Assembly (NCBI RefSeq): GCF_030144855.1
Contig: NC_082717.1
Location: 67,828,001 to 67,892,000, forward strand
DNA length: 64,000 nt
From: Hypanus sabinus
Lineage: Eukaryota
Direction: 5' to 3'
A program made the position numbers and the translations under genes. The notes beneath the pieces are model-generated. The model saw nothing but the letters and a program-made list of their open reading frames with translations. It made no database searches and had not been told where the DNA came from. Positions 633-63,360 of this stretch are shown here, piece by piece. The first letter of the stretch is position 1; every line of letters starts with the position of its first letter.

Positions 633-3600
633 TTATCTGGGCAGGCAAGGTGGGTGCAGTCCACTGCTGGGGCTAGGCAGCAGCTCAGCAGGTGTTGCCT
701 GCTCAGATCCTGTGGTCTATCTTATCACTTACAGTTCAACATGATGACAATCGCTATCTCCCTCTCTTTATTTGCCCAGTGATTCCTTCACACCCAGAAT
801 TCATACCAAAAGTAATGAGATGGGAGAGTCTATAGCACAGTGCAGAAGGAAAGCCAGGACCTGACAACCTACAGCTCTGAGGAGCCAAAGAGGGACAGAT
901 GTGAGAACCGGGTAGATGCCTGATACTTCATAACTTTTGAAGGATGAACATGTACATCTGCAGAAGCAGGTCAGTTCCAATTCAGAGAAACTGGAACTAG
1001 TTCAAAAATTAGAGCACCCTCAGCTGGAATAAAAAAAAGAGGTAAAAAGCTGAACAAAGTGGGCTGCTGATTGAGTAACTTCTCACTCTAGAGACTGAAA
1101 TAGAATAGAGAGATGCTAAAATAGATACATTAAAATGGCATTATAGTCTTTCTGAACAGTCATTGCTTTTTCAAAATAGTGCATAAAAACAAGTACTGGC
1201 ATCATTTGTGAAGCAGCAAGTTGCTGAAAGACAGGTTGGAACAGATGTAATTTAAGTTTTGGTTTAAGAAGTCGAACTTTCTTTCCCAGACTAAATTAGA
1301 ATAAATGCTCTGATAAAGAAAGCATTTCAGCGAATGAAAAGCACTATTTGAGACATGACAAATCTTTGTCTTTGGGAGAAGAAAGTATTTCACTGAAACA
1401 ATGAGTCGGAGCATACTACAATATACTGTGAGTATAAGCAGAAAATGCTGGAAACCCTCATCTTTCTTGGTGGAGAGAGAAATGGAATTAACATTTCAGC
1501 TTAATGATCCTTCATCAGCTCTAAGCATGTCTGCAGGATTCTCCAAAGATAGGTGTGAGTGTCCTGGAATGAATGAATGTGGATCAAGAATATAAATGAC
1601 CATTTCTTAAGGTACCAAGTTCCACCTTCTCACCGCTGTAAGTAAAGAAACTTATCCTGATTTTCGTTATTAAATTTATCAGTGAATTTATTTATGGTAA
1701 TTATTTTAGCCAAGTCCACAAGATGAAACACTTGTTTAGCTAGATAGAATCTTTAAAAATTCTATCAGTTCATTTATCAGCCTTCCTTTTTGAAGGGAGT
1801 GGGCCCCATCCTGTTTGACATTCCCTCATAATTGTAACTTCTCAGTTGTGGTATTAGCTTTGAATATACATGGGCTGTGTATTGCACCTAGTCCAGTGGT
1901 TCTCTATCAATTTTTATAATATGAAGACTGGTAATATATGCAACACTCCAAGTGACAATATTCTGTTGTTGAACTGAGGCCCTCTTAATGGATTTTTAAA
2001 CATGTTGGATAGGATTCATTGATAGATGCTTGTGCTAAACATGAACATGTCATGACAGCTTCATGTTTTACTCCACTTCTGAATTTCAGCTCCAGTGAAG
2101 CAAGTAGAACCAAATCTCAGAAGCGGTGTGCACAGTGCAGCCATTTCTGTATATGTATCTTTTGAGCAGAAGACCATCTTCTGCAGGGTTGCCACCCTGG
2201 GGTCCATGGTAGTGGTCCCTCAGTTAACGGCATCAAAATGGTTGGGAAACCTTGAGCTGGTGGAGATCGCACTAAAATGCAGACACAATGCCCTAATGCA
2301 ATGGTATCATCTTATCAAGGTAAAATGAGAAGTTTTCACTTCACTGGAACATAAAGTATTACAAAATAAAATCGTGAAAACGCTTAAGAGTTTTAAGGTT
2401 TGGATAGCAGCAAAGAGTTAATTGACGTCAAATGAGGTTTGGGTGATGGCGGATGCAGTTAGTGTTCTTCGCTCCAGCTCCTGCAATTCTTGCCTGATTT
2501 TTAAAAGTAACCCCTTAAAGCCCAGAGCACGATGGAGAGGAAAACTTCAGAATATGTTGACTCTGTGGCATTTGCAGCCTGGATGAGCACGACAGCGTTC
2601 GAGTCAAGTAGAGTTTACTATTATGTGCACAGGTACAGCAAGTTACAAGTACAATTAAAAACTTCCAGCAGCATCACAGACACATTGGTTCAGACAGTAC
2701 ACTAAATATTAGACAAGGCAGAGAAGTGAAAAGACTGTGCAAAACAAGGTATCACAGAGACATAGTCATGGTTTAAATTTCCATCCAAAAAGAATTAGAT
2801 GTCATACTATGTACTCCTGTGGGAGCAATCACAGACTTAGATTAGGCACAAATGGTCCATATCTGTGTTGTGATCTTGAAGACATCTTATAAGTATATTG
2901 ATTAAAATTTCTCTGAATGCAGTAGATGCCAAATAATTTAAATTTGTTTAAGCTAAAATACAGAAGGAATACAAAGATTAAAATTTAATTTTATTTTAGT
3001 TCAGATGCATCCATATTATTACTCCCATAGAAAATTAGTGTTTTATTTTTCTGGATAAAAGCATAACATTTGACTTTCTATTTTGGCTCCACTTCAGTTT
3101 AAATCAGGCAGTTTATTTTCAGAGCACTTGGGAGCCAGGGCTTCTAAGAAATGGCTGGGACTCCTAATGAATGACTAGAGTGTCTCTGTGTTGTAAATGT
3201 CTTCCAGTCTTTTCAGTTAATATATGTGAGTGAGAAAAATAAAACTAAAAGAAAGAAAGCTATTTGAAGAGGGTCATGTCTTAAACGCACATTCCAAAAC
3301 AATATTTCATGAAACCAATCAAGTTAATTTGAAGTTATATTTTTCTAATCTAACTCAGTTCCATCTCCCAATGGATTTTGTTTCGAAAAATATGAATTAG
3401 TACCTTTTTCAAGACATTTTCTGCTCTTACAATTAATGGTCTTTAATATAATAACATGGTGGACTTCACTGATGTAGTGACATTTTCTGTATTTATACTA
3501 GATGAGCTCATCTCAAAATCAATAATGTAAAAAGTTGAGTGCTTTAAAATTCTAAACGCTACGTGTCCAAGAAACTTTCTCCTTGCCCCATTTCAATATA

Positions 3601-4389
3601 CAGTTTCAAGATCAACCAATGCTTCTACATTTTAAGGAGCATCACTACTTTAGTCAATTCCCTGTTTGCCATTAGTAGCTCTTCCTTTTGCTGCCCATAC
3701 CCAAAATTCTGGAATTCCCTTTTAAGTTCCCTTCAAGGTAGTCCTAAATTCACTTATCTGATCAGATATTGATAAGTTCCTCCTGTAAAACATTTGAGTT
3801 GTTTTACTGAAGGTCGTTCATGAATGCAACTGTTGTTATGTACAAAGATTCTAATTTTGGCAAGTACATGCAAATAAAAGGCATCAAGCACCTTAAAATG
3901 CGAGATCATGATGTTTAATACATTACCAATCAAACACAGCTGTGACATCTGATAATTTCTTTTAAAAATTTGCTAAAATAAACTCATCCAGGATATTCCA
4001 GGAGAAGATTCCATTTAAAAACTCCGCATTGTGATTTATCATTGCATCAATAGAAGGCATTCCAATGACTGACTACGTCCCATTACTTTACAGCCCAGCT
4101 AATGATTTCTCCTCAAGATTCTATCTAATTTACCTTATAAGTGTCCTTGCTCACTCTTTCCATTAGCTTTGAAGATATCCAGTTCTGGAGCATAATCTTT
4201 TTCCTCTCATTTTCACTCACTTTTCTCACCCACCTGAACTTTTTCTTTTTCACATTAAATCCAGTTCTTCAAATATCCTGGAATATCTCTATGTTCCACC
4301 ATGAAGTTGTTCCCTGAAAGTACCCTCTTGACATCCTCTTTTTTTTTGTGAAGAAATAAAAAGAGCCACTTCTTCAGCCAGATTCTTTA

Positions 4390-4713
4390 TCCCTGTGTCA
4401 AAATGACTAATACTAGAGGGCATTCATTTAAGATGAGAGGAAGTAAATTCAAATGACATTTTAGGGCATGTTATTTTGTTACCCTAAGAGTGGTGAGTGC
4501 TGGGAATGGACTGCCAGGTGGCAATAGTGGAGGCAAATACAATGAAGACATTTAAAAGACTCTTAGACAGACAGATGATTGTGCAGATAATGCAGGTGTA
4601 GGTGGAAAGTATTAATTCAGTTAGGTTTTTAATTACTGGTTTAATTAGTTCAGCACAATATCATGGACCAAAGGGTCTGTTCCTGTGTTGTACTCTTCAA
4701 TATGATATGTTCA
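4390..4713 (+). mobile_element. CR1 LINE 3' fragment
   Basis: Degenerate TRGH...RVVSAWNGLP...FKRLLD coding remnant plus CR1 tail. Confidence 0.75.
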
Positions 4714-6346
4714 TGAATCTGAAATTGCATTGCCCTAGAACATTCTAGTAAGTATTTTCTGAAACCCCTCCTAGCTTTTCACAACCTTACATCCAATGAA
4801 GTCTTTCAATTCTGTATATCAGGTATTGAAAACTTGCTTATGCATTTGTTTGGTTTATACTTTATGAAAAGCAGGTTGAAAAATAGTATGGTGAAAAACA
4901 AGTAGCAACAGAACACATTTTCAAGTAATTGTTGCTTATAATCTCTAAAGTAATATATAAATAACCCTACCTTTATTGGGGGAACTTTTTGCAGATCAGC
5001 AAAATCTGAAATTATTTAGACCTAACTTTAAGAAGAGAGTTTACCCTTTGAACTAAATTCTGCTCCACTTCCGAAGTCTTTGCTTTCAATTGGACAGGAC
5101 ACTCAAGATTTGGCCTATGACCCTTCACAATTATAGCAGTTATTGGCCAATTGAGTTGTGAATCAATCCCAGTCCCAGTGATGCAAACAAAAGAGGTCAT
5201 TCCTGTGTTATATAAGATTTTTCTTTAAAGTGATATCGTACATTGGAAACAAAAATATTTTGGATAATTCTTTTGGTCTTGGAAATTCCATGCCTTCTAA
5301 ATTTAGCACAATAACATTGTGGTATAATCCAGAATGAAGTAAGTACTAAAATAGTTAAACAGAGAGCAGGTTACTAGCCTAGGTTTATCGTTAATCAGAT
5401 ATTGAAGATTAATGAATGATCTATTTGAGATGTCTGAGATTATTAAAAGATCAGTGTCTTCCTCTGATGTGGGAGCCTGTAACGCAGAGTATAACTTTAC
5501 ACTAATATCTAGGTCATTCCAGTGGAAAATCAGGCAACTCTCCTTCTATGACCCCATTATTGGAAACCTGGAGCTCTCATCCAAAAAAAAAGTTAGTAGG
5601 TTATAGCTCAATGGAAGGTTTCAGAAATGAGGTCATGTATTAGGCAAGGCTATTCTGGAAACAGTTAACCAATGGAATTAAGATACAGATTGGCTATAAC
5701 TAATTGAATAGTGGGGCAGCATAAACTGCTGAATGTCCTACTCCCGTTTCCAAATTATGTCCAAAAAGCGAACAATGATTTCCATTTATAATATCTCTTT
5801 TCAAGATGGCCCAAAGTAACTTGCAGCCACAGAGGTCCTTTCTGAAAGCTGAACAGCTATGCTGTAGCAAGTAGAACAGCCAATCTGTACAGTGCAAGCT
5901 TCCAAAGACAGCATTACGATGACATCCAGATGACCTTTACCCTTTCATCAATCTGATCACACTTTAAGTGCAAGTTTATTTATTTTTAATATTTTTTAAA
6001 ACAGCAATGCACTCTTTCGACATATACACATTTATATAATATAAATTAATGTTGTATTCTTAGTATGTAGTTTTAAAATGATGGACTAAAATAACTAGCA
6101 TCACTTGCTAGACAATTGAGTTACTCCATGCAGTAGGAGTACTGAAGGCACCAACATGATTATTAAAAATATATTTTTCTAATCTGGGAGACATGTCTTT
6201 TGAGAGAATTGGTTAAGGGTAGACAAGGAAAAGGAAAACCGGTCACTCCTCAGGCAGTATAATTTCTCAATTTAAAGCAAGATAGACTAATTCAAAGTTT
6301 ATTTTAAAAATTTCACTCTAAAATGTTGTTTCTATTAATAGAAATG

Positions 6347-7564
6347 TTCTTTCTTTCTTTCTTTCTTTCTTTCTAAATCTTTTTATTAATATTAGTAATA
6401 TGGACAGAATACAGATGATATATTGATAAAGAAATTACCAACATACACATTCCATTACATATGAAAAAAAACATACATAATAGTTACAATATAAATGAGT
6501 TTACCAAGACATAAGCCATAAGATATATGTATGGACATAGTAAATCTAAATATTTCATAATGTATAATATAAAAAAAACAGAAAAAAGAAAGAAAAAAAC
6601 AAAAAAAAATTATATAATGCAGAACTAGCTAATCTAATCTAATAACTATAACTAATAAGTAATATAAAAGAAAAAAAACAAAAGAGAAGGGAAAAAAAAA
6701 CGGGCTGTTTATAATATCTCACAAAAATAAGTATTCATCAATGCCGTCACTTCCGGTCCTCTCAAAATACATAAGCTGAAAGCTGGGAAATCAAATGAAC
6801 TTGGCACAGGGTCATATTACATCATATGAAAATGTTGAATAAATGGTCTCCATAACTTTTCAAATTTAATAGAAGTCTCAAAAGTACCACTTCTAATTTT
6901 TTCTAAATTTAAACATAACATAGTTTGAGAGAACCAATTAAATACAGTGGGAGGATTAATTTCTTTCCAATTCAACAATATAGATCTTCTAGCCATCAGA
7001 GTTAGAAATGCAATCATTCGACAGGCAGAAGAAGATAAATGCAGTGAATCTAACATTGGTAAACCAAAAATTGCGGTAATAGGATGAGGTGGTAAATCAA
7101 TATTCAAAACCGCAGAAATAATATCAAAAATATCTTTCCAGTATTTCTCCAAAAATGAACACGACCAAAACATGTGAGTTAAAGACGCAATTTCAGAATG
7201 ACATCTATCACAAATAGGACTTATATGAGAGTAAAAATGAGCTAATTTATCCTTGGACATATGGGCCCTATGTACGACCTTAAATTGTATTAGTGAATGT
7301 TTGGCACATAACGATGATGTATTAACTAATTGAAGAATTCTATCCCAATTCTCACTAGAAATACTAAAACTAAGCTCTCTTTCCCAATCCTGTTTAGTCT
7401 TATAAAGAGGCTCTGAACGTATCTTCATAATTATATTATAAAGTTTTGAAATAAGCCCTTTTTGAAAAGGGTCTAATTCAAATAAACTCTCCAAAGTATC
7501 TGAAGGCACAAAATTTGGAAACGTAGAGAGTACAGAACTTAAAAAATGTCTAATCTGTAAATAT
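6347..7564 (-). mobile_element. 5'-truncated L1-clade LINE with 3'UTR, AATAAA and (AAAG)n tail
   Basis: ORF2 C-terminal region; minus strand ends 'aataaaaagatttag(aaag)n' at 6347-6390. Confidence 0.9.
6817..7563 (-). CDS. L1 ORF2 C-terminal fragment (zf-RVT, CCHC), partial
   Basis: Open frame YLQIRHF...QFKVVHR...CDRCHSEIASLTHMFWSC...W; truncated at the 5' end. Confidence 0.85.
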   Translation of the reverse strand, partial: YLQIRHFLSSVLSTFPNFVPSDTLESLFELDPFQKGLISKLYNIIMKIRSEPLYKTKQDWERELSFSISSENWDRILQLVNTSSLCAKHSLIQFKVVHRAHMSKDKLAHFYSHISPICDRCHSEIASLTHMFWSCSFLEKYWKDIFDIISAVLNIDLPPHPITAIFGLPMLDSLHLSSSACRMIAFLTLMARRSILLNWKEINPPTVFNWFSQTMLCLNLEKIRSGTFETSIKFEKLWRPFIQHFHMM

Positions 7565-7788
7565 ACTTTAAGTGCAAGTTACTTCACTGGAAAGATATCC
7601 TTCTGTTCTTCGAGCTATGCCGTGAGATTGTTCACTCCCACCTCAGAAAGCCGATGGACCTCCGTTAAACATCTCACCTAAGATGCAACATTTTCAAAAC
7701 TATATAGCATTCCTTCAGTACTAGAAAACTGGCCTCAAGGTCCGTAATTATGCTGTTGAAGTTGAGCTTAAACCAACAGTCTTCCGCT

Positions 7789-7910
7789 TTCAAGATATTA
7801 ACATCACTCAAGTTCATTTGAAATTTATCCTGGTTAAACAGGCAAAATTTCCAAAAAATGATAATGTAGTGTAACTAAAGACTACTTTTCCTATTTCTCA
7901 TGTACCTACA
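7789..7910. repeat. 122-bp dispersed duplication, copy 1 (copy 2 at 9989-10110)
   Basis: Direct alignment with about 7 mismatches and no gaps; 2200 bp apart. Confidence 0.95.
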
Positions 7911-8459
7911 GTTATTTTCCAATTGCCAATATGAGGCAAGTAAAAACTATTACTAGAACTATTTAGATTAAAGTACAAAATGCTTAACAATATTCCACAT
8001 TTCTAGAGAACTCTCTGATTTATAAGCAGTTTGAATGCTAAAATGACAGGTTCGCTGAACAATTCTGTTCCAGAACAGAAGATAGATTTCACTTGGTTAC
8101 ATTAATACATACAAAATGGGGAAAAAAAACAATATATGTACGCACAAGATATACAACAAATGTTAATTAAATTCCTAAACAAACATTTCTGGAGCCATAA
8201 TATGCTTTGCTATTGGAACATTAGGAGTTGATGATCAGAAGGAAAAGTCTGCATTTATAGAAAGCATAACTGTGATGTACAGCCGTAAAATTGAACTTAA
8301 AGTAAAATGTTTCAATTTGACACTCACATACTGACACGGTAATTGGCATATCTGAGGAAATATTTTCTTAGACAATTATGACACCATACAGGAAACATGA
8401 GTGAAAATAAGCTTTTTAAACTCACAATCTGACAGAATTACATTGAATTGATGGGAGTA

Positions 8460-8670
8460 TCAGCTTTGGTAGAGAGGGAAGTATTCTGAATCAGAAGGTT
8501 ACAGTCCAGTGCCAGACAAAACTGTTGGAGGTGCTAGGTAAAACATTAAATCAAGGCCCCTGCCCTTTCAGGTGAACATTAAAGATCAATTGACTTTATT
8601 CTGGAGAACAGAGAAGTTATACCAGTGTCTTGGTCAATGTTTAATGCATAGTCAATATTAATGAGACTGT
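8460..8670 (+). mobile_element. SacSINE1/Deu-SINE-like SINE, degenerate
   Basis: 'ctgaatcagaaggtt...aacattaaatcaaggcccctgccctttcaggtgaacattaaagatc' core. Confidence 0.55.
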
Positions 8671-9403
8671 TTAGGCCAGAAGTTCATTTGTAAGGAGCTG
8701 AAGAGTTTTTCCAGCACTCTGAAAATTACGTTTCTGGAGGGGGATGTAAAAGCAATCACTTATGTGGGCAAAAAGAATATTGCAGCGAGTAATACAGTTG
8801 TCTCTTCATTCTGGAAAATGTAGGTTTAATCCTCTTTGTTGTCTATCTGGAATTTTCATGTTCTGTCTGAAACTGCCTGGGTTTTCCCTTCAGTTCTCTG
8901 ACTTACACCAACAACCCAAACACACGCTGACTGAGCAGTTGGCTCTGTGAGTGACTTTCTGTGCAAGGAGGAGCAGGAAATTAGGGTGGAGTTGGTGAGC
9001 AGAGAATTCTGGGAAATATGTGATGCCTGAGATTGATGGTAATACTCTGAAAGGGAAACTGGACTGGCTAGCTTAAATGGCCTCCATTTATGCTGTAATA
9101 AAATTTAAAGATTTCTGCACCAGGCACTATTGGCAATATCAGTTCTTTCCTGATCTTGTATGCAGAAAATTGCACTTCATTGTTCCAAAGGGTTCCTGTC
9201 ATTGGGAATCCTGGAACAACCATGGGGATCCAATCCAGCTAAATCTAATTAAGTTACCACATGATCTCCTTGGCACCAACCCAATGCACTAGCTTTGACT
9301 CTGGCGCTCTTGATAATGTACTCTATCCCCCAGATTTGGCCCAGGCTCTGAATCCTGTTGTCTCTATGCAACTACATATCAATTAACTAAAAGTACATAT
9401 GTG

Positions 9404-12270
9404 TGATATGGCTTCAACTGGTGTATTCACACTTCAGTGAGAGAAAGAGAAAGAGCAATACGCAAGCGAGGGCAACAGATCATATGTAGTGCTAAGGGGA
9501 GTCATTGTTCTAAAAGAAATAAATCCATGCATTACACTTCCTACCCCTTTAGATTAATATAACATAAAACTGTATATGTATAACACATTCAATTGCCCTT
9601 TTACCAACCATATTTGAATAAACATGCTTTTATAGTAACGGTCCATGACTAACTTCAGTCTTTTGGGTAATGCTCTGTTTCTTTCAGAATAGCGCCTCTA
9701 GACGTGTGGCGTGACATCAGGTTTGGTGGGTGCCTTGTCAAAGACAACATTCTCGGTTGCCGATGTCATGTTGCTGTTAGAGGCACGACTGTCTCTGAGA
9801 GGTAAGTCCAGTGGTTGTAATGTGTCCGTCTTGTTGGATGCATTCGACTCAGGTGTGTACTTCGGCTGAGCATCCAGTGTCTGGTCCACATGACGTCACC
9901 CTGTCTAATCTCCAACATCCACTGTGTACATCAATGGTCCAGTTCTTGTACCTACTAACTCCTCAAGTCACATCTCCTCTCTTCATTCTTCAAGATATTA
10001 ACATTGCTCAAGTTAATTTGAAATTTATCTCAGTTAAACAGGCAAAATTTCCAAAAAATGATAATGTAGTGTAACTAAAGACTACTTTTCCTATTTCTCA
10101 CGTACCTACATGGCCAAAGCCCACAAAAACCCAACAGCTTTCATACAGACAAGAAAGAATAACGTCTCTCTCATTGGTTAAAGTCCTATTATCACTAGTC
10201 ATAACACAAACATAGCAGCTACGTGAGAAACCATTACATCAGCAATTAACAGTACAGGGAAGTCATTACATAAATGAGCTGATTGTGGATTACAGGAGGA
10301 ATGGAGGCGGACTAACCCCTATTTACATCAATGGATCTGGGGTTGAGAGGGTGAACAGCTTTAAGTTCCTCAGCATACACATCACCGAGGAACTCACATG
10401 GCCTGTACATACCGGCTGTGTGGTGAAAAAAGCACAATAGTGCCTCTTTCACCTCAGATGGTTGAAAACCTTTGGTATGAGACCCAAATCCTAAGGACTT
10501 TCTACAGGTGCACAATTGAGAACATCCTGACTGGATGCATCACTGCCCGGTATGGGACCTGTACTTCCCTCAGTCGCAGGACTCAGCAGAGAGTAGTGCA
10601 TCTATAGATGTGAACTTCTCACTTCTCAGGACATTTACAGAGACAGGTATGTAAAAAGGGCCTGAAGGATCATTGGGGACCTGAGTCACCCTAACCACAA
10701 ATTGTTCCAGCTGCTACCTTCTGGAAAATGGTACCACAGCATAAAAGCCAGGACCAACAGGCTCCAGGACAGCTTTTTCCACCAGCCCATCAGACTGATT
10801 AATTCATGCTGATACAACTGTATTTCTATGTTATATTGACTGTCCTGTTGTACATACTATTTATTATAAATTATTATAAATTGCACATTGCACATTTAGA
10901 TGGAGACATAACATAAAGATTTTTACTCCTCATGTATATGAAGGGTGTAAGTAATAAAGTCAATTCAATTCAATTCAATTCAATTCAAATTATCAACAAA
11001 GCTGACCTTGCATCAAGCTCCATTTTCAGTTTTACACCAGACTCACCTTTTGTGTTCCATATGATTTTGTGATCTGCTTTAGTAATACTATGCAGTTCTA
11101 GGCATGACATCTCACTTTTGTCTGACTCAGTGTTGTCTGTTTCTGTTGCATATTTGGTCATTTTATGCACTTGCTTAGTTTAGTGTTTGAAATTTTTCAC
11201 TCGGTTGTGTTTCTTTTCTGCATTGCACACTTTATGTGACCTTGTCTTTGACACTTTCTGCAAGCTTTTTTATCTGAACCAATAGTCATGGGAGGATTTG
11301 CCTCATCAATAACAATTTTTGGCTTTTTACACCATTCAGGTACATTTTGTGCATTTCACATTCTAGACTCTTTTTCTGTAGTTCTGCTGCATCCTTTGCT
11401 GCAGTCTCTAACAATATTGCAAAGGTCACTGCCCATTCCAAGCTTAGGTCTCTTTCAAACAGTAGCTTCCTTTGAGTGCTTTGACTAAGCATGCTACATA
11501 CAAGCCTGTCCCTCGATCCATCAGGAAGTCCATCTCTAAGGTCACAGTATTGTGAGAGTTTGCATAGTTCTTCAATGTATTCAGAAATGTTTTCATCGTT
11601 TGACTGATCTCTTTTGTAAAATCTAAATCTCTCAGTTATTACCAGTGGTTAGGTGATTTTGTATAATTGTCACAATTTCATTGACCGTCTTGCTTGCTGG
11701 CTTTTCAGGAGTTACTAAGTTGTGTAAGAGACTGTATGTCCTAGTGCCCACTAAGCTAAGAATTGTGAGGGCTTTCTTTTCCTCATCAACATTGTTCACA
11801 CCACAATACAGTTCAACCCTCTTGCCTTACGACTTTCAGCCTTCTTTAGCACTTTTGCATTAATCAGCTTTCCCCGACTAAAGCCATCGCCACATTATTT
11901 TCACTTTACCCTTGCCAGCTGCACGCATTTCACTGTGTACTTTGCAGTTCCTCAAGCATCCTTTTGTTAGCGTCTGTGATGGTCTACTCCGCACTGTTTC
12001 CTTTCACTGCCTTGTCCCGTAATCATCCTACAGCTGTCGGTGCAGTTGGTGATATTCTCTGACATTCACGTTTGTACTTATTGCCAATTTGTTGATTGTG
12101 GACTGATGTATTCACATTACAGTGAGAGAGAGAGAGAGAGAGAGAAAGAGTGAGGGAGAGAAAGCATTGCACATATATAGACAACAGATCAATACTCATA
12201 CGTTGTCAGTAGTCCATACGTAGTGCTAAGGGGAGTCATTGCTTTAAAAGAAATAGATCCATATATTACA
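9404..12270 (-). mobile_element. Degenerate, internally deleted Gypsy LTR retrotransposon
   Basis: Related LTRs ~9404-9536 and 12090-12270 (both end 'attaca'); PPT at 9537-9550; PBS-like 'aattggcaataag' at 12077-12089; gag remnant 11290-11890 (LSLVGTRTYSLLHNLVTPEKP, ERFRFYKR, TQRKLL); protease start KMELDARSA near 11000; integrase tail RTGPLMYTV...RHVDQ near 9880-9950. Confidence 0.85.
10271..10987 (+). mobile_element. Rex1/Babar-type LINE 3' portion nested in the Gypsy element
   Basis: ELIVDYR...FKFL...FYRCTIENILTGCITA motifs; (CAATT)n tail 10961-10987. Confidence 0.85.
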
Positions 12271-25759: not shown

Positions 25760-26407
25760 AGTGAAGAGGGCAAATGGAATGTTGGCATTTATTACAAGGG
25801 GAATTGAGTACAAGAGCAAGGATGTCCTTTTGCATTTGTACAGGGCCCTGGTGAGACTACACCTGGAATATAGTGTACAGTTTTGGTCTCCAGGTTTAAG
25901 GAAGGACATTCTGGCAATTGAGGAGGTGCAGCGTAGATTCACTAGGTTGATTCCTGGGATGGCAGGGCTGTCTTACGCAGAGAGATTGGAGAGATTGGGC
26001 TTGCACATGCTGGAATTGAGGAGATTGAGAGGGGATCAGTTTAAGATAATTAAAGGATTTGGTAGGATTGAGGCAGGAAATATGTTCCAGATGTTGGGAG
26101 AGTCCAGTACCAGAGGGCATGGATTGAGAATAAGAGGTCAGTTATTTAAAACAGAGTTGAGGAAGAGCTTCTTCTCCCAGAGAGTTGTGGAGGTGTGGAA
26201 TGCACTGCCTCGGAAGATGGTGGAGGCCAATTCTCTGGATGCTTTCAAGAAGGAGCTAGATAGATATCTGATGGATAGGGGAATCAAGGGATATGGGGAC
26301 AAGGCAGGGACTGGGTATTGATAGTGAATGATCAGCCATGATCTCAGAATGGCGGTGCAGACTCGAGGGGCCGAATGGTCTACTTCTGCACCTATTGTCT
26401 ATTGTCT
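25760..26407 (+). mobile_element. 5'-truncated CR1 of the same family, inverted inside the long copy
   Basis: VKRANGMLAFITRGIEYK...RVVEVWNALP...GDKAGTGY*; (ctattgt)n tail; ATTAT at 25755-25759 and 26408-26412. Confidence 0.9.
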
Positions 26408-29127
26408 ATTATCTTAAACGTTTCAATCAGATCCCCTCTCAATCTCCTCAATTCCAGCGTGTACAAGCCCAATCTCTCCAATCTCTCTGCGTAAGACAGC
26501 CCTGCCATCCCAGGAATCAACTTAATGAATCTACGCTGCACTTCCTCAATTGCCAGAATGTCCTTCCTTAAACCTGGAGACCAAAACTGTACACAATATT
26601 CCAGGTGTGGTCTCACCAGGGCCCTGTACAAATGCAAAAGGACATCCTTGCTCTTGTACTCAATTCCCCTTGTAATAAAGGCCAACATTCCATTAGCCCT
26701 CTTCACTGCCTGTTGCACTTGCTCATTCACCTTCATTGACTGATGAACTAGGACTCCTAGGTCTCTTTGCATTTCTCCCTTACCTAACTCTACACCGTTC
26801 AGACAATACTCTGCCCTCTTGTTCCTGCTTCCAAAGTGGATAGCTTCACATTTTTTCACATTGAATGACATCTGCCAAGTATCTGCCCACTCACCCAGCC
26901 TATCCAAGTCTCCCTGTATTCTCCTAACGTCCTCTTCGCATGTCACACTGCCACCCAGTTTAGTATCGTCAGCAAACTTGCTGATATAGTTTTCAATGCC
27001 CTCATCTAAATCATTGACATAAATCGTAAAGAGCTATGGTCCCAATACAGAGTCCTGTGGTACCCCACTAGTCACCTCCAGCCAGTCGGAGAAACACCCA
27101 TTCACTGCTACCCTTTGCTTTCTATCTGCCAACCAGTTTTCTATCCATGTTGAAACCCTGCCCCCAATGCCAAGAGCTCTGATTTTACTCACCAATCTCC
27201 TATGTGGCACCTTATCGAATACCTTCTGAAAATCTAGGTACACAACATCCACTGGCTTACCCTCGTCTAACATCCTTGTTACACCCTCAAAAAACTCCAA
27301 CAGATTAGTCAAGCATGATTTGCCCTTGGTAAATCCATGCTGGCTTGGCCTAATCCTATTACTGCCATCAAGATGTGCCACTATTTCGTCCTTAATAATG
27401 GACTCAAGCATCTTCCCCACGACTGACGTTAGGCTAACAGGGCGATAGTTCTCCGTTTTCTCCTTCCCTCCCTTCTTGAAAAGTGGGATAACATTAGCCA
27501 CTCTCCAATCTTCAGGAACTGATCCTGAATCTAAGGAACATTGGAAAATGATTACCAATGCATCCGCAATTTCCTGAGCCACCTCTTTTAGAACCCTCGG
27601 ATCCAGACCATCTGGACCCGGGGATTTATTAGCTTTCAGTCCTAGCAGTCTACTCATTATAGTTTCTTTCTTCATGTCATATCTGTCTCAATTCCTCTGA
27701 TATCTTATGACCCTGGCCCATCCATTCATCTGGGAGATTGCTTGTGTCCTCCCTGGTGAAGACAGATCTAAAGTACACATTAAATTCTGTTGCCATTTCC
27801 CTGTTTCCCATAACAATTTCTCCCAATTCATTCTTCAAGGGGCCAACATTGTTCTTAACTATCTTCTTTCTCTTCACATAGCTAAAAAAGCTTTTGCTAT
27901 TCCCTTTTATATTCCTGGCTAGACTGAGCTCATACCTGATTTTTTCTCTCCATATTGCTTTTTTAGTTAAGATCTGCTGTTCCTTAAAGCTTTCCCAATC
28001 ATCTGTATTCCCACTCATCTTAGCTCTGTCATACTTCTTTTTCTTTAATGCTATACAATCTCTGACTTCCTTTGTCAACCACTGTGGCCCCTTCCCCCTC
28101 TTTGAATCCTTCCTTCTCATTGGAATGAACTGCTTTTGCATCTTTTGTATTATCCCCAAGAAGATCTGCCACTACTGATCCACTGTCTTTCCTGCCAGGG
28201 CATCCGCCCATTTAACTTTGGCCAGCTCTTCCCTCATGGCTCCTAGTCTCCTTTATTTAATTGCAACACTGACACCTCTGATCTGCCCTTATCCCTCTCA
28301 AATTGTAGATAAAAACTTATCATGTTATGATCACTACTTCCAAATGGCTCCTTTACTTCAAGATCACTTATCAATTCCTGTTCATTACACATCACCAAGT
28401 CCAAAATAGCCTCGTTCCTGGTTGGCTCAAGCACAAGCTGTTCCAAAAATACATCCCTTAGACACTCCACAAACTCCCTATCCTGGGGTCCAGCACCTAC
28501 CTGATTCTCCCAGTTCACCTGCATGTTGAATTCTCCCATAACGACTGCATTACCTTTAGCACATGCCAATGTTAACTCCCTAATTAACGTACCCAATATC
28601 CATGCTACTGTTTGGGGGCCTGTACACAACACCCATTAGGGTCTTTTTACCCTTACTGTTCCTCAGCTCAATCCACACAGACTCTACTTCCCCTGTTCCC
28701 AAGTCACCTCTTGCTCAGGACTGAATCTCATTCCTCACCAACAGGGCCACCCCACCCCCTCTTCCCATATTTCTGTCTCTACGATAGCACGTATACCCTG
28801 GTACACTCAATTCCCAGGCCTGATCCCCTTGCAGCCATGTCTCCGTTATCCCAACAATATCGTAGTTCCCCATTTTCATCTGAGCTTCAAGCTCACCTGT
28901 CTTATTTCTGACACTACGCGCATTCAAGTATAGAATTCTTAGCCCATTCCTCCTCTCTTTGCTTAAAACACTGTCTATTGTACCTAACCCAGCTCCTTGA
29001 ACTTCCATCGGGCTAATTGCACCTTGAATTTTGATGACCTTCTCAAGATCACCCAAACCTTCTACACATTTAACCCAATGCTCCTTCTGACCAACCCTCT
29101 GGATCTGGATCCCTGCCCCCTGCACAT
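26408..29127 (-). pseudogene. CR1 ORF2 (AP endonuclease plus reverse transcriptase), disrupted
   Basis: YLNARS, GITETWL, GGGVAL, SDH; KSPGPDG, NYRPVSLTS, QHGF, YLDFQKVFDKVPH, GVPQ, FADD; split over five ORFs. Confidence 0.92.
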
Positions 29128-30073
29128 CTAGTTTAAACCCCCCCCCCCGAGCAGCACTGGCAAACATTCCTGCAAGAATGTTAGTACCCCTCCGGTTCAG
29201 ATGTAGACCGTCCCTTTGAAACAGATCCCAAAGTCCCTGGAACAAAGACCAATTATCCAAAAACTTGAACCCCTCCTTCCTGCACCATGCTCTCGGCCTC
29301 GTATTAATGTGCATAATCATTCTATTCTTCGCCTCACTCGCACGTGGCACAGGTAGCAATCCCGAGATTGTCACCCTGGAGGTCCTGCCTTTCAGCTTCA
29401 CTCCTAACTCCCTGAGCTCTCTAAGCAGGACCCCCTCGCTCACCTTACCTACATCATTGGTCCCTACATGGACCACTACATCTGGGTTCATGCCCTCGTT
29501 ATCAAGAATAGCCTGCACCCGATCTGAGATGTCCCGGACCCTGGCACCAGGGAGGCAACATACCATCCGAGACTCCCGATCTGCCCCACAAAATCTCCTA
29601 TCTGCCCCCCTGACTATAGAATCCCCTAAAACTATCGCTCTCTTCTCTTCCCTCTTCCCCTTTCTAGTTGAGGGTTCAACCTTTGTGCCAGAGGCAGGAC
29701 AACTACAACTCATTCCTGGTAGGTCATCCCCATCAACAGTATCCAGTACGGTATACTTATTGTTAATGGGAATGGCCGCAGGGGTGCTCTGCTCTCTCTG
29801 CCTGCTCCCCCTGCCTCTCTGGACCGTCACCCATCTGCCTACTTCTTGGTTTTTTGGTGTGACTACCTCCTGATAACTCCTATCTATCTCTGCCTCCACC
29901 TCCCGAATGATCCGTAGTTCATCCAGCTCCTGCTCCAACTCCCTAACTCATGCTGATAGGAGCCGCAGCTGGACGCACCTTTTGCAGGTGTGGTCATCAG
30001 GGACAACTGTGTTGACCCTGACCTCCCACATACTGCATACGGAGCACACCACTGCTCTGACTGTCTCCCCCAT
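29128..30073 (-). pseudogene. CR1 ORF1 (CxxC-CxxC zinc finger/coiled coil plus SGNH esterase) with premature TGA at 29948-29950
   Basis: MGETVRAVVCSVCSMWE...HTCKRCVQL; GDS, LPGA, VHVGTND, DGLHLN motifs. Confidence 0.9.
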
Positions 30074-38375: not shown

Positions 38376-39836
38376 TGACTATGAGACTGACATCCCGGGT
38401 CAATTTTGAGGATTAATACGTTTTTTAATCATCACATCGCTGTGACTGTGGATTTCATCTATAATAGTCCTAAGCAGGAATATTTTATGATTCTCAATGG
38501 AGCTGCACACAAAGAGTCACCACATATCAATGACATTTGCATTCATTGCAAATTTTGCAAATTTCTTCTGAAAGCTCTGTCTAACAAATATATCTGACTT
38601 ATGGGACTACTTGATTTTTTATTTTGCAGTGCATTTTTTTCAAAGTAGTTTTTCATACAAATTAAGAAAAAGTTCTGATATCTGACATCTCTGATGAATA
38701 TAAGCCTTGATCATGCTTATGAATCATGTTCATGGCCTCAGTTATTTTGCACATATGAAAATGCTCTTGGAAATTCCTTCATAATGACGAATAAACAATA
38801 GTCAAAAGCAGAGTGAATTCCGAGATTCTTAACCATTGTTCCAACTTGATATGTGCAGCTCATTCATGTTTAATTCAGATGTTATTTTTGCAAATGGCAT
38901 GTCCACATATCTATTCGCAACATGGAACCTTCCCGCTGAAACTCAGATGCCCCACAAACAATTTCAAATAAGCGTCAGGTTACCCAGTCAATTCTTTGTT
39001 GCCCTGGAAGGATCTTGTCTACATGTTACCTCATGAGAGAATGCATGGTGTTGACTTTTGAGACAATAGTGTTTAAGAATTTTGCCAGTAACTTTATTTA
39101 TCTCTGAATCTTCAATAACATCCAATGAGTAGTTCAAATCAGAATACGTGAAAAGAATTTTACATATAATGGATCCTGAACATTTAAAAAATATTCTGAA
39201 TATTCTTTACATTTTCACTTTTCTATTTTTACAAAGAAGAGTAGAGTGTAATTATTGCTACTTGTCTTGAAATAGTATAAAATTGGTTTGAAACCCACAG
39301 TGTTTATCACAGAAAACAATTTAATTTGGGATTTGCATTTTGCACAATCATTTAACTCCTGTGATGATCTGGTGTTTACAGGAAGAAGCTGGTGAAACAA
39401 GACCAAAGTTTCTAATATATTGATCCAATATATCGACATACAACTTGTGCCTCATTTGTCTCTGGTTTCTGAAATTCATTCTGTTGTATGTGTTTGCAAA
39501 TTCCCTTTTGGTTCACTTAACTAGAAAGAGAAAACTGTAATAATGATAGTTGACTAATACATTATCTGAAATATTAATTCCTGAAACCATAAAATAAGAA
39601 ATTAGAGGGTGATTTGGTAGTGGATTAAATGGGGTTGCAATAATCAGACAGGCATAGTGAAAGGTAGATGTGACTAAATTGAGGAGAATAAAATACTGAG
39701 AAGTCTGATCAGAGGAAGGGCCTTTCTCCTGTTGCAGGAGAGTTGAAGATCAGAGTTTTAAATATGAAGGTTGTGAGGGGCTGTCTATGAGAGTGGTAGG
39801 GGTCCGGAATTCACTGCTTGAATATATGGTGGGGGC

Positions 39837-42262
39837 TATTATGGCTTGTAAATTCAAAACATTAAACCAATTGAAAGGAAGACACAAGAGTCTGGAAATG
39901 TGGGTCTAACTTTGTGTTTACTTTAGGCAAGGTACCACAAACATCTTGTGGTAGCGTGGCGATGAATGCAATTCACAAATCTATATGTTTAACTCATAAT
40001 GAATTACAAAGTGTATTTAAATAACCAAGAATGCTTAATCAACCAATATATATTACTCAAATATTACTGAAATATTAAATACACAAAACTCCTCCCTGCT
40101 TAGCTAAAGACTCGAACTCAAAACAGAATGCATCTCAATTGTATACACAGTGTTTTATATAATACAACTACCATATACGGGCATCCACAGTATTCAGATT
40201 TAATGATTTCTTACTGGTGTGGCCTGGCATGGGGGGTTACTCTGCTTGGCTGGTGAGACTGGTGGATGTGAAACATTCTCAGGTTGTGGAGCCTCCTCTA
40301 TGATCGTTGTTTGCATTGACTCGGAGACTGCAGGAAGAGGTTCAGACAGCAGTAATCACCTTTCTTCTTCTAGTTTGTGCATCTTGATCCTGGGAAGGTG
40401 CATTTAAATCACTGGAATCATCTACAACATCATCTGATGACTCCTCTATTTTCAAATCTCCATTGACACCATTCTTTGTGGATTTCTATTCAACAAGCTG
40501 CACTTTAGTCTTTGCATCTACTTTTACAAGCAGCTTTTCATCTCCCACTTGAAGTTCCATTTGAGATAACCTTAAAGCATGCCAAGCAGATTCTGGTTCT
40601 TTATACTCACAAAAACTAAATGCTTCCAACATTCCTGAAGCTCCTTGATCTCTCTTCCAGCTGAAATCCAAACCACATTTCACAAGTAACTACCTGATTA
40701 ACATATCAGAAGCTTTCTCAGATATGATGCCCACAAAAACTGGTACAGTCAGATCACAGTTTTCATCCCGTTCACACTTCCGCTGAGCAGTATGGTCCTT
40801 CCTTGTTCCAATATGCTTTTCAACCAGAGGCACAGAGGTTGGCATCAACATTGGGCTCTATTGTACAACAGTTCATGGTGTACAGCATGGAAATAGTTGT
40901 GGCATCATCCAAAAGCGTTCTTAATTTGCTTTCAATTGGTTTCATTGCAGGGGATGTGGCATACAAATAGTGGATGGATCTCCAAACATGTTGTAGTCAT
41001 CTCAGCCAATCACATCTCCACAATGATGGTCGTCCTGTTTTTACCACAAACACGCTCAATGTGGCTTGTTGGTTCTTATATTTTACCGTCACAAGCATCA
41101 TTCCCACGGGAATTATCTTTTCTTCAGCATATGTTCTTAGTTGGTTATCTGCAGGCTTCAGTTTAGTATCTTTGAAAGGCCATTCAAACTTATTTCGTGG
41201 ACTGACTGAAACAGCTGTCCAATTCCATTTTAGTTAATTTGCCGTTCATTTTTGGTGTAGCCATATTACTTGTCTCATGTTAGTTTTCACCTTGTAAATC
41301 TCAAGGGTACCCAGACCTGCATCACTCTCATCATTATCAGCTTTCTCATCAGACAGCATACAGATTAGCATTCTTTTTGTAACTTGACTTTTTTTTCTTT
41401 TTGACTTCTCTGTGCAGTTTATTTATTTTTGTCTGCCTGATATAATCTGTGTATGTACTACTTTATTGCATTTTCTATAATCTTTTAGATTCCAAGTATG
41501 TTTCATAAGTATTATGAACCTTATGTTTCATTCTGCAATCATCAACGGTTTTGGTTCTAAATGTTCCTGCATCACTTTCACAATATCAGCAAAGCTAATT
41601 TTGGATGGTTTGGTTGGAGCAGGTAAACTTTGAAGCAAACTGTATGCCTGTAAGCCAAATGCACTCAGCAAAATTGATACTTGTTTCTGACTGGCTTTTC
41701 CTTCCTATTTGTTTCAAAATATTGTTCAATTAGCTCGGTATACATGAGTCAGTTATCCCTTGTGGAATCAAGCACACCAATATTTCCGATGTACCAACTA
41801 TTTCTACTTTATTTAATGACTATTTTCACCCAATACTCACACTTTATGAATCTGTGAATTCTTCTGTTTGCTGCTTTTTTTAAAACTTCACATTATCTGC
41901 ATATGCTGAGCTGCATTTTTTTTACTTGCCATTTCTCTCTGGAATTTTTTTAGTTCAAAGTTTTTGCTCTGCTTCAACAACTCAATAGCCATCTCAGGTT
42001 CATTATAAAAATACCTTGTCACCAATGTTATTTTGTGTAACTTCAAAACATTAAACTAATTCAAAGGATGATACAGGAGTTCAGTAATGCAGGTCCAACT
42101 TTGTGTTTGTTTTAAGCATGGCACACATGTATCATGTGGTAGTGCGATGACATATGCAATTCACATAGATATAACTCATATTGAAGTATTTAAACAAGCA
42201 AGGATACTTAATCAATCAATATAAGGTTACTCAAATATTACTTAAATATTAAATACACAACA
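39837..42262 (-). mobile_element. Non-autonomous Gypsy LTR element inserted in an old CR1 fragment
   Basis: LTRs 39837-40088 and 42026-42262; PBS-like TTGGTGACAAGG 42014-42025; PPT 40089-40097; TSD GGGGC/GTGGC; gag start near 41800; protease KMELD...LRTYAEEKIIPVG...DWL 40975-41265; flanking CR1 is collinear. Confidence 0.9.
40359..40890 (-). pseudogene. RBM25: Processed RBM25 fragment (RRM domain and flanks) inside the Gypsy element
   Basis: Translates to KHIGTRKDH...DENC...VFVGIISEKASDMLIR*LLVKCGLDFSWKRDQGASGMLEAFSFCEYKEPESAWHALRL...EKLLVKVDAKTKVQLVE*K...SSDLNAPSQ, matching recalled vertebrate RBM25; no introns; stops at 40690-40692 and 40486-40488. Confidence 0.93.
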
Positions 42263-42381
42263 GTGGCAGAAACACTTATCACAAGTAAAGAGCACTTGGA
42301 TATGTACTCAAAGTGCTGTGTTCTCCAAGAGCTAGGTTGTTTTCTTTGATGAGTACCAGTCCGATGACAAGCCAAATGCCC

Positions 42382-42499
42382 TCCAATTCCATAATTCTAA
42401 TTAAGATTTTGTAGTTAATGAATCTTAGTCACCTCCATCCAATTCCATAATTCTAATTAAGATTTTGTAGTTAATGAATCTTAGTCACCTCCATCCAAT
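42382..42499. repeat. Perfect 56-bp tandem duplication (2.1 copies)
   Basis: Units start at 42382 and 42438; TCCAAT recurs at 42494. Confidence 0.95.
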
Positions 42500-62248: not shown

Positions 62249-63149
62249 CAATACAAATACTTTATTGTCACCAAATAATTGGTACTAGAGCGTACAATCA
62301 TCACAGTGATACGTGTTTCTGCGCTTCACACTCCCTGAAGTACAAAAGAAAATGGTGGGCAGAGGGATCCTAAAGACCCGCCGCTTCAATCTGACCAGCA
62401 GCCTAGCTCTTTCCCCATGCTTGCTTGGTAATTTGTGCATCTTTCCAGATTTCCATCGATGCAGTGTGTTGTTGGCAGCTCTTTGAGGTTGGTGGACGCG
62501 TCCCGCGGGGATCGATCGGCGGGTCATGTTGTCGGGCACTCCAGGTCGGGCCGAGTGCCACTTCCAACTGTCGGGGGCCCGGGCTGTTGTTCGGGTTGGG
62601 ACCTGAAGCCGACACTTAATCCCGGAGGGCCGGGCTGCCGGCTGAAACAAGTCTGTGAACTGTGTCACGGTTGCGGAGGCCTCCGTTCCAGCCGAGCCCC
62701 GGGCTCGATTTCTGAGGTCGGCGACGGAGGCCTCACTTCCGGCAGCTGTGGATGGCCACCAATGGGGCTCTATGGTGGTCGCTCTGGGGAAACGTCTGGG
62801 GTATATTGAGGTCTCTGACATCACTTCCGTGTGCTTGTTTGCTTCGGAGAGGTGCTGGTCGGAATGGGCCATGTCTCCAGGCGCTCCGACACAGTAGCAG
62901 GCCGCGGGTCTCCGGGAACGTGGTGGACCTCCGACCAGGCCTCGACGATCGGGTCCAGGTGCGGTCTGGAGTTGAAGCAATTCTGGCGCATCAATGATCT
63001 CCAGCTGGGTCAGTAACTTCACCAGGGTGGTGGTGATCTTGCTAGATGTAGCAAATTGGAGGTTTAGAAGGGTTTCTCGGGTATAGGATAGTGTAAAGGG
63101 CAGTTTGCTCGGCAGAGCAGATGCAGAGTCGCCAGTTACCGGTGCCATG
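62249..63149 (-). mobile_element. Bipartite, internally deleted Rex1/Babar derivative inserted in an older Rex tail (62142-63320)
   Basis: 5' 'acatggcaccg', YTRETLLNL and KHGERARLLVRLKRRVFRIPLPTI joined directly to a ~105-bp 3' tail with AATAAA; TTTA at 62245-62248 and 63150-63153. Confidence 0.75.
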
Positions 63150-63360
63150 TTTATCTGTAACTGCAACACTTTATTCTGCAATCTGGTGTTGTTTTCCTTT
63201 GCACTGCCTCAATGTACTGATGTAATGAAATGCGCTGAATGGATAGTTTGTTAAACTGAATGGATGTCTTGCTGAAGAAGTTCTTCACTGTATTTCAGTA
63301 CATTTGACAATAATAAACCATTTGACCATGCTCCTCTCCTTTTTACAACCACTCATGATT

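Follow-up and report, generated by a model that had tools for sequence, protein, structure and literature searches.

A decayed Gypsy-type LTR element carrying spliced RBM25 sequence and the old repeat family to which it belongs

The 64,000-nucleotide stretch of Hypanus sabinus DNA analysed here (the window) holds on its minus strand a dead, non-autonomous Gypsy-type element that has, in all probability, had its RT-RNaseH-integrase region swapped for a spliced piece of the host gene RBM25, most likely by two microhomology-guided template switches involving a co-packaged mRNA. Gene capture by a vertebrate LTR retrotransposon can here be resolved in full, with the host gene, the parent family, both junctions and the later sub-lineages all readable. 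The features that make the case notable are the copy number of the resulting family and the mRNA isoform preserved in its copies.

Anatomy of the window copy

The LTRs, primer site, gag, protease, RBM25 piece, pol tail and polypurine tract that a first-pass annotation had described on the minus strand were all located at the following window positions, where TSD is the target-site duplication.

39837..42262, minus strand: decayed LTR element as a whole; the window copy, dead
42263..42267, minus strand: TSD, 5' side, GCCAC; 4/5 match to the 3' side
42026..42262, minus strand: 5' LTR, 237 bp, with TG at its start
42014..42024, minus strand: primer-binding site, decayed; the family form complements the 3' end of host tRNA-Ser(GCT)
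41250..42000, minus strand: broken gag region, limits approximate, with a gap near 41520-41476
40905..41250, minus strand: broken aspartyl-protease region with its linker; colinearity with the parent family holds as far as the junction
40898..40904, minus strand: 5' junction microhomology TGCCACA, found both in parent pol and where host exon 3 ends
40852..40894, minus strand: host exon X (48 nt), with 5 nt missing over the joint with exon 4, which shifts the frame
40459..40851, minus strand: host exons 4, 5 and 6 without introns (RRM), with two stops
40361..40458, minus strand: host exon 7, 60 nt of it deleted, followed by the shared deletion to the start of exon 9
40359..40368, minus strand: 3' join AGAAGAAAGG into the pol tail; the host side in long copies is exon 10
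40101..40360, minus strand: pol C-terminal tail plus 3' untranslated region; parent copies are colinear here
40089..40100, minus strand: polypurine tract
39837..40088, minus strand: 3' LTR, 252 bp
39832..39836, minus strand: TSD, 3' side, GCCCC

Consistent with the earlier description of a decayed copy, the LTR pair shares 84% identity over 230 aligned columns (K2P 0.18), both reported stops are present in the RBM25 piece, and the near-perfect 5-bp TSD matches at four of five positions (GCCAC/GCCCC). The single internal deletion noted previously is the 60-nt loss in exon 7, but the copy also carries the 5-nt frameshift between exon X and exon 4, and its gag lacks ~330 bp that sister and parent copies have. 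Likewise, the RRM was correctly recognised within the RBM25 piece, which nonetheless starts ~45 nt farther upstream than proposed, taking in the end of exon 3 and the 48-nt exon. The piece lies in the same sense orientation as the element and has neither poly(A) nor a target duplication of its own at its ends, bearing out the view that it is not a LINE-made retrocopy. Its AGAAGAAAGG join is the product of later deletions and not the original 3' join, since this copy belongs to the short forms and has lost a further 60 nt. The protease piece of this copy matched neither Pfam nor PDB; a Pfam scan of eight window ORF pieces gave nothing useful and a PDB scan of the protease pieces nothing relevant, while aspartyl-protease Pfam matches, all sub-threshold, were obtained in six of seven sister copies.

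Other repeats were seen in the window. A perfect 56-bp tandem duplication lies at 42382-42499, ~120 bp past the 5' LTR. A LINE-type element at 26395-29947 (minus strand), which we take to be CR1/L2-like, has an SGNH/GDSL-esterase ORF1 piece together with endonuclease and RT pieces, and a 253-aa frame at 6820-7578 (minus strand) with a zf-RVT match is a fragment of another LINE-type element. The stop-free 307-aa frame at 62288-63208 (minus strand), which had no Pfam match, is probably a repeat ORF1.

Spliced RBM25 in place of the catalytic core

The host RBM25 gene was located on G000:C16 with an RBM25 C-terminus protein as query, and 150 kb of the locus was examined; a PWI family search of the genome did not recover the gene that the protein query found. 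Nine host exons are relevant to the captured stretch, all with canonical GT-AG ends, and exons 3 to 10, numbered by the vertebrate scheme, form a single open frame in which an additional 48-nt exon, X, stands between exons 3 and 4. Among named proteins, the RRM piece is best matched by RBM25 from the shark Heptranchias perlo. When the window piece was aligned to the host gene, as had been proposed as a check, it was found to span the exon junctions, corresponding to five separate exons spread over 12 kb at 81-88% identity. In longer copies the captured stretch takes in the final 10 nt of exon 3 and extends into exon 10, with eight introns gone, and in a set of 74 copies (96 loci, minus 16 with fewer than 400 aligned bases and 6 duplicates; 55 of the 74 chosen through the RRM region) the exon joints are aligned gap-free in 59-71, depending on the joint.

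Both ends of the captured sequence fall on exact microhomologies. The 5' junction, identical and ungapped in 60/74 copies, lies on the 7-nt TGCCACA, a word that parent pol has in common with the final bases of host exon 3. After it the copies read ACT, as exon 3 does, giving a 10/10 match to the end of that exon; the presence of these last exon 3 bases speaks against reading the join as a splice to exon X. In long copies the 3' junction lies on the 9-nt GAGAAGAAA, which occurs in the pol tail and again where exon 10 starts; the exact word is kept in 4/8 parent copies with an undeleted tail. The first-pass annotation was thus right that there is a 3' microhomology, though its host side is exon 10 and not the basic stretch of exon 7. 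At random switch points, at least 7 matches would be expected with a chance of ~6e-4 and at least 9 with a chance of ~5e-5. The 5' fusion also proved to keep the frame, which had been raised as a question for protease and RRM: pol and host frames coincide, and natural copies are open from the linker through to the RRM.

Parent copies, chosen via a motif that includes the 5' microhomology, identify what was replaced. An exact parent-type 22-mer, combining the upstream word with a different next base, occurs 331 times, and all 20 retrieved parent loci run on into pol and not RBM25. At the very point where RBM25 begins in the hybrid, the parent continues into RT, RNase H and integrase, as the claim of replacement had it: pieces of two copies gave RVT_1 and RNase H matches and weak integrase matches in Gypsy order, and in parents L072 and L090 these domains occupy a motif-to-tail distance of 2,437 nt. 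A captured mRNA of ~1.07 kb therefore stands in place of ~2.4 kb of RT-RNaseH-integrase. Parent L082 adds a weak gag zinc-finger match, and a whole pol frame was found in none of the 20 parent copies. The element is classed as Gypsy-type from its anatomy and motifs: it shows the protease-RT-RNaseH-integrase order (integrase and protease below Pfam cut-offs), TG...CA LTRs, a tRNA primer and a 5-bp duplication of Gypsy/Ty3 elements, with a family primer site that matches host tRNA-Ser(GCT). Shared LTRs, the shared primer site and similar decay suggest that the family was mobilised in trans by this parent.

Among 12 parent copies extending to the tail, three or four carry cargo-free deletions whose end point is the pol-tail word of the 3' junction, which therefore looks like a recurring landing point, resembling the recurring switch site near an exon joint described for BLASTOPIA by Tan et al. 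(PMC5131818). In L081, L085, L086 and possibly L078, the cargo-free deletion runs from the integrase zinc-finger region to the pol-tail word that received RBM25; these copies are perhaps a second non-autonomous family.

Amplification, age and decay

Searches of the 4.04-Gb genome indicate that the hybrid is abundant. With the window copy as a DNA query there were 2,726 candidates, of which 40 were scored, the others among these being ~80% identical to it; a protein search gave 5,541 candidates, of which 150 were scored, with a best identity of 80% and no young copy among these best 150. There are 136 exact occurrences of a 23-mer at the 5' junction, and 24/30 of those retrieved were of the captured type; because the exact junction word is present in only 3/55 copies found independently, we arrive at a rough estimate of ~2,000 copies (roughly 700-9,500 when the binomial error of 3/55 is carried through). 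TSDs matching at no fewer than four of five positions were found in 11 of the 18 copies with both ends called (41 examined at length), compared with 5.5% for mismatched pairs, so each copy is a separate insertion. Amplification after capture, as previously proposed, is what these dispersed loci record: the scattered copies share one 5' junction and have their own target duplications, as is seen for non-autonomous LTR families. An extra LTR or a tandem arrangement with an adjacent family member was seen at L127:799 (oriented) and at L010/L129.

Sub-lineages are visible within the family. Captured lengths cluster at ~900-1,080, 710 and 610 nt; exon 8 is kept in 21 of the 74 copies, 33 share the common exon 7-to-9 deletion, which departs from the host frame, and 20 are otherwise deleted or interrupted. 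A few source copies may lie behind the deletion classes, as suggested by three substitutions that track deletion class (p 5e-4 to 9e-3, uncorrected, 38 sites), and the classes are unclustered on the tree (23 changes vs 24.4 when shuffled).

Copies lie 0.10-0.13 from the commonest base of each column, in agreement with LTR pairs in 13 copies (K2P 0.16-0.32, mean 0.25). Because the tree is star-like, with end branches near 0.1 (support on 6/72 inner branches), the copies appear to descend from a single old burst. A shark rate of 7e-10 per generation has been published (PMC10587355), but since it is expressed per generation and comes from a species other than the host, it does not serve to date the family in absolute terms. 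Nine residues differ between the host and Heptranchias, and most copies agree with the host at six of them and with Heptranchias at three; this pattern would place capture on the host line, after the Heptranchias split and before three later host changes, with one shark protein as the base. At two of the six host-like residues, bony-vertebrate outgroups fully match Heptranchias, indicating that the host state is derived.

The dN/dS check that had been suggested gave no sign of selection: non-CpG pN/pS is 0.77-0.80, against a neutral expectation of 0.80 from the four-fold-site spectrum, a comparison with low power on the source lineages because the tree is star-like, and an open frame under purifying selection was accordingly not seen. 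Variants shared by many copies have lower values (0.53-0.74 at four or more copies), which may reflect recurrent transitions; weak selection is another reading. In-frame stops occur in 66/74 copies, and across pN/pS, stops and all 74 copies no sign of function was found in the RBM25-carrying family, nor was an annotated chimeric protein found, by names and coverage, among 66 matches of 165-527 residues. Decay since insertion has been neutral, and the cargo most likely rode along as a passenger. The idea that the element spread a splicing-factor RRM through the genome therefore holds for the hybrid, which was amplified, but not for a working RRM, as the copies decay neutrally.

Routes of capture, known systems and the preserved exon

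The first-pass annotation had proposed capture of an mRNA by template switching, and its components (spliced content, replacement, microhomologies and amplification) were each tested and upheld. RBM25 mRNA would have been co-packaged with element RNA, and during minus-strand synthesis RT would have left the element RNA at the pol-tail word GAGAAGAAA, landed on the identical word in RBM25 exon 10, copied back across eight exon joints and, on reaching TGCCACA where exon 3 ends, rejoined the element RNA. Copying in trans by the parent family's enzymes would follow, because the hybrid kept both LTRs, the primer site and the polypurine tract. One old burst would then have carried it to its ~2,000 sites, with slippage in the purine-rich RBM25 part as the putative cause of the shorter sub-lineages (~710 and 610 nt). 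The switch is deduced from its trace, and recombination at the DNA level with an RBM25 cDNA would leave an identical one.

Such DNA-level joining, in which a LINE-made RBM25 retrocopy or free cDNA met a Gypsy copy through microhomology-mediated repair and the hybrid was mobilised afterwards, gains some plausibility from the LINE-type elements common within the window and from the microhomology that end-joining repair also leaves. We nevertheless consider it very unlikely, given the lack of poly(A) and of an own duplication, the position of both ends within coding exons, and a pol that is replaced and not interrupted; moreover, the column-commonest bases differ from the host at just 31/585 sites, many of them CpG or host-lineage changes, which leaves little time for an intermediate pseudogene. 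Read-through followed by splicing is the classic route of oncogene transduction, and here it would require a parent upstream of exon X transcribed into RBM25, a cryptic pol donor spliced to the exon X acceptor, and template switching for the 3' join alone. The 5' join is indeed just 3 nt off the exon X acceptor, a GT stands at the corresponding parent position, and GCT, one transition from the copies' ACT, is found there in 3/20 parents. However, the full 10/10 match of the copies to the end of exon 3 requires zero changes and the parent site fits the splice-donor consensus poorly, making this route highly improbable.

A separate question is whether the cargo drove the burst, either as an in-frame Gag-protease-RRM fusion or as RBM25 RNA that aided packaging, export or escape from silencing. 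In favour of this, the 5' join keeps the frame, the source RRM is unaltered save for two CpG columns, a stop is never the commonest codon of a column, and the common deletions all lie 3' of the RRM. Yet an in-frame join has a 1 in 3 chance and 55/74 copies were chosen through the RRM region; pN/pS is neutral, both of the exon X changes that track deletion class are non-synonymous, the exon 7-to-9 deletion loses the host frame, and deletion derivatives without cargo stop at the same tail site. A useful cargo is thus unlikely. Doubtful too, though it merits mention, is a broader reading in which the in-frame fusion was made and aided spread, or small RNAs supplied by thousands of sense copies placed host RBM25 under its own transposon defence, while the repeats also keep in frozen form an ancient isoform, possibly of the germline, whose extra exon is specific to cartilaginous fishes.

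The template-switch reading agrees with a mechanism already known for LTR-mediated retrocopies in animals (Tan et al. 2016, PMC5131818), whose hallmarks the RBM25 family shares: introns are absent, sense-oriented partial mRNA replaces the internal ORFs, both LTRs are retained, and both joins show microsimilarity (median 6 bp there, 7 and 9 nt here). Poly(A) and a cargo duplication, the features of a LINE-made processed pseudogene, are lacking in both, and in both the product went through further rounds as a non-autonomous element. As described there, two retrocopies have more than one insertion site, with 18 sites for nine retrocopies, whereas the family here is old and dead with ~2,000 copies and size sub-lineages. 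Crocodilian ERVs that captured nectin3 (CrocERV31) and KIT-ligand (CrocERV29) are likewise vertebrate LTR elements in which a captured host mRNA was amplified, and nectin3 stands in place of an element gene (PMC4299795). Those are described as retroviral, with cargo ORFs under purifying selection, whereas the present element is Gypsy-type, lost its whole catalytic core and decayed neutrally; the exon set of an essential splicing factor has here become a repeat family of ~2,000 copies, compared with six and nine copies. Maize Bs1 is also an LTR element with host gene fragments, but it is a plant element with three host genes and a chimeric gene (PMC13317346), while here there is one gene and no sign of a new one. 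As far as these accounts go, the copy scale here exceeds that of the compared cases. Our literature search found no report of an RBM25-carrying LTR family, although a repeat library could already contain it unlabelled. Both the effect of the cargo on spread and host tolerance of many sense copies of its own gene are now testable.

Finally, the copies keep a record of old host alleles and of an old mRNA isoform; they will confuse RBM25 annotation and read mapping in the host lineage. Exon X is retained in 72/74 copies and occurs in the Heptranchias protein, and it is missing from all 39 bony-vertebrate RBM25 N-termini with a readable upstream part (among 162 proteins); it is possibly a regulated cassette exon of cartilaginous fishes. 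In the host it lies at L047:6119-6166 (G000:C16:113706119-113706166), 48 nt in frame with strong splice sites, and its surroundings are conserved, with 60-68% of sampled words from a 501-nt stretch found in sequencing runs from four other organisms. The exon X-to-4 joint was found in contigs of 4/4 sequencing runs from three related organisms (their RNA status a guess), and in the same runs the end of exon 6 is crossed by 4-10 divergent contigs per run. Because element copies could yield the same joints and RNA status is guessed, these contigs are a hint that relatives carry the RBM25-bearing family and have no bearing on whether the exon is included or the family expressed. About 126 kb downstream of host RBM25 lies a gene for tRNA-Ser(GCT), the primer type of the family (L192, G000:C16:113872517), probably by chance.
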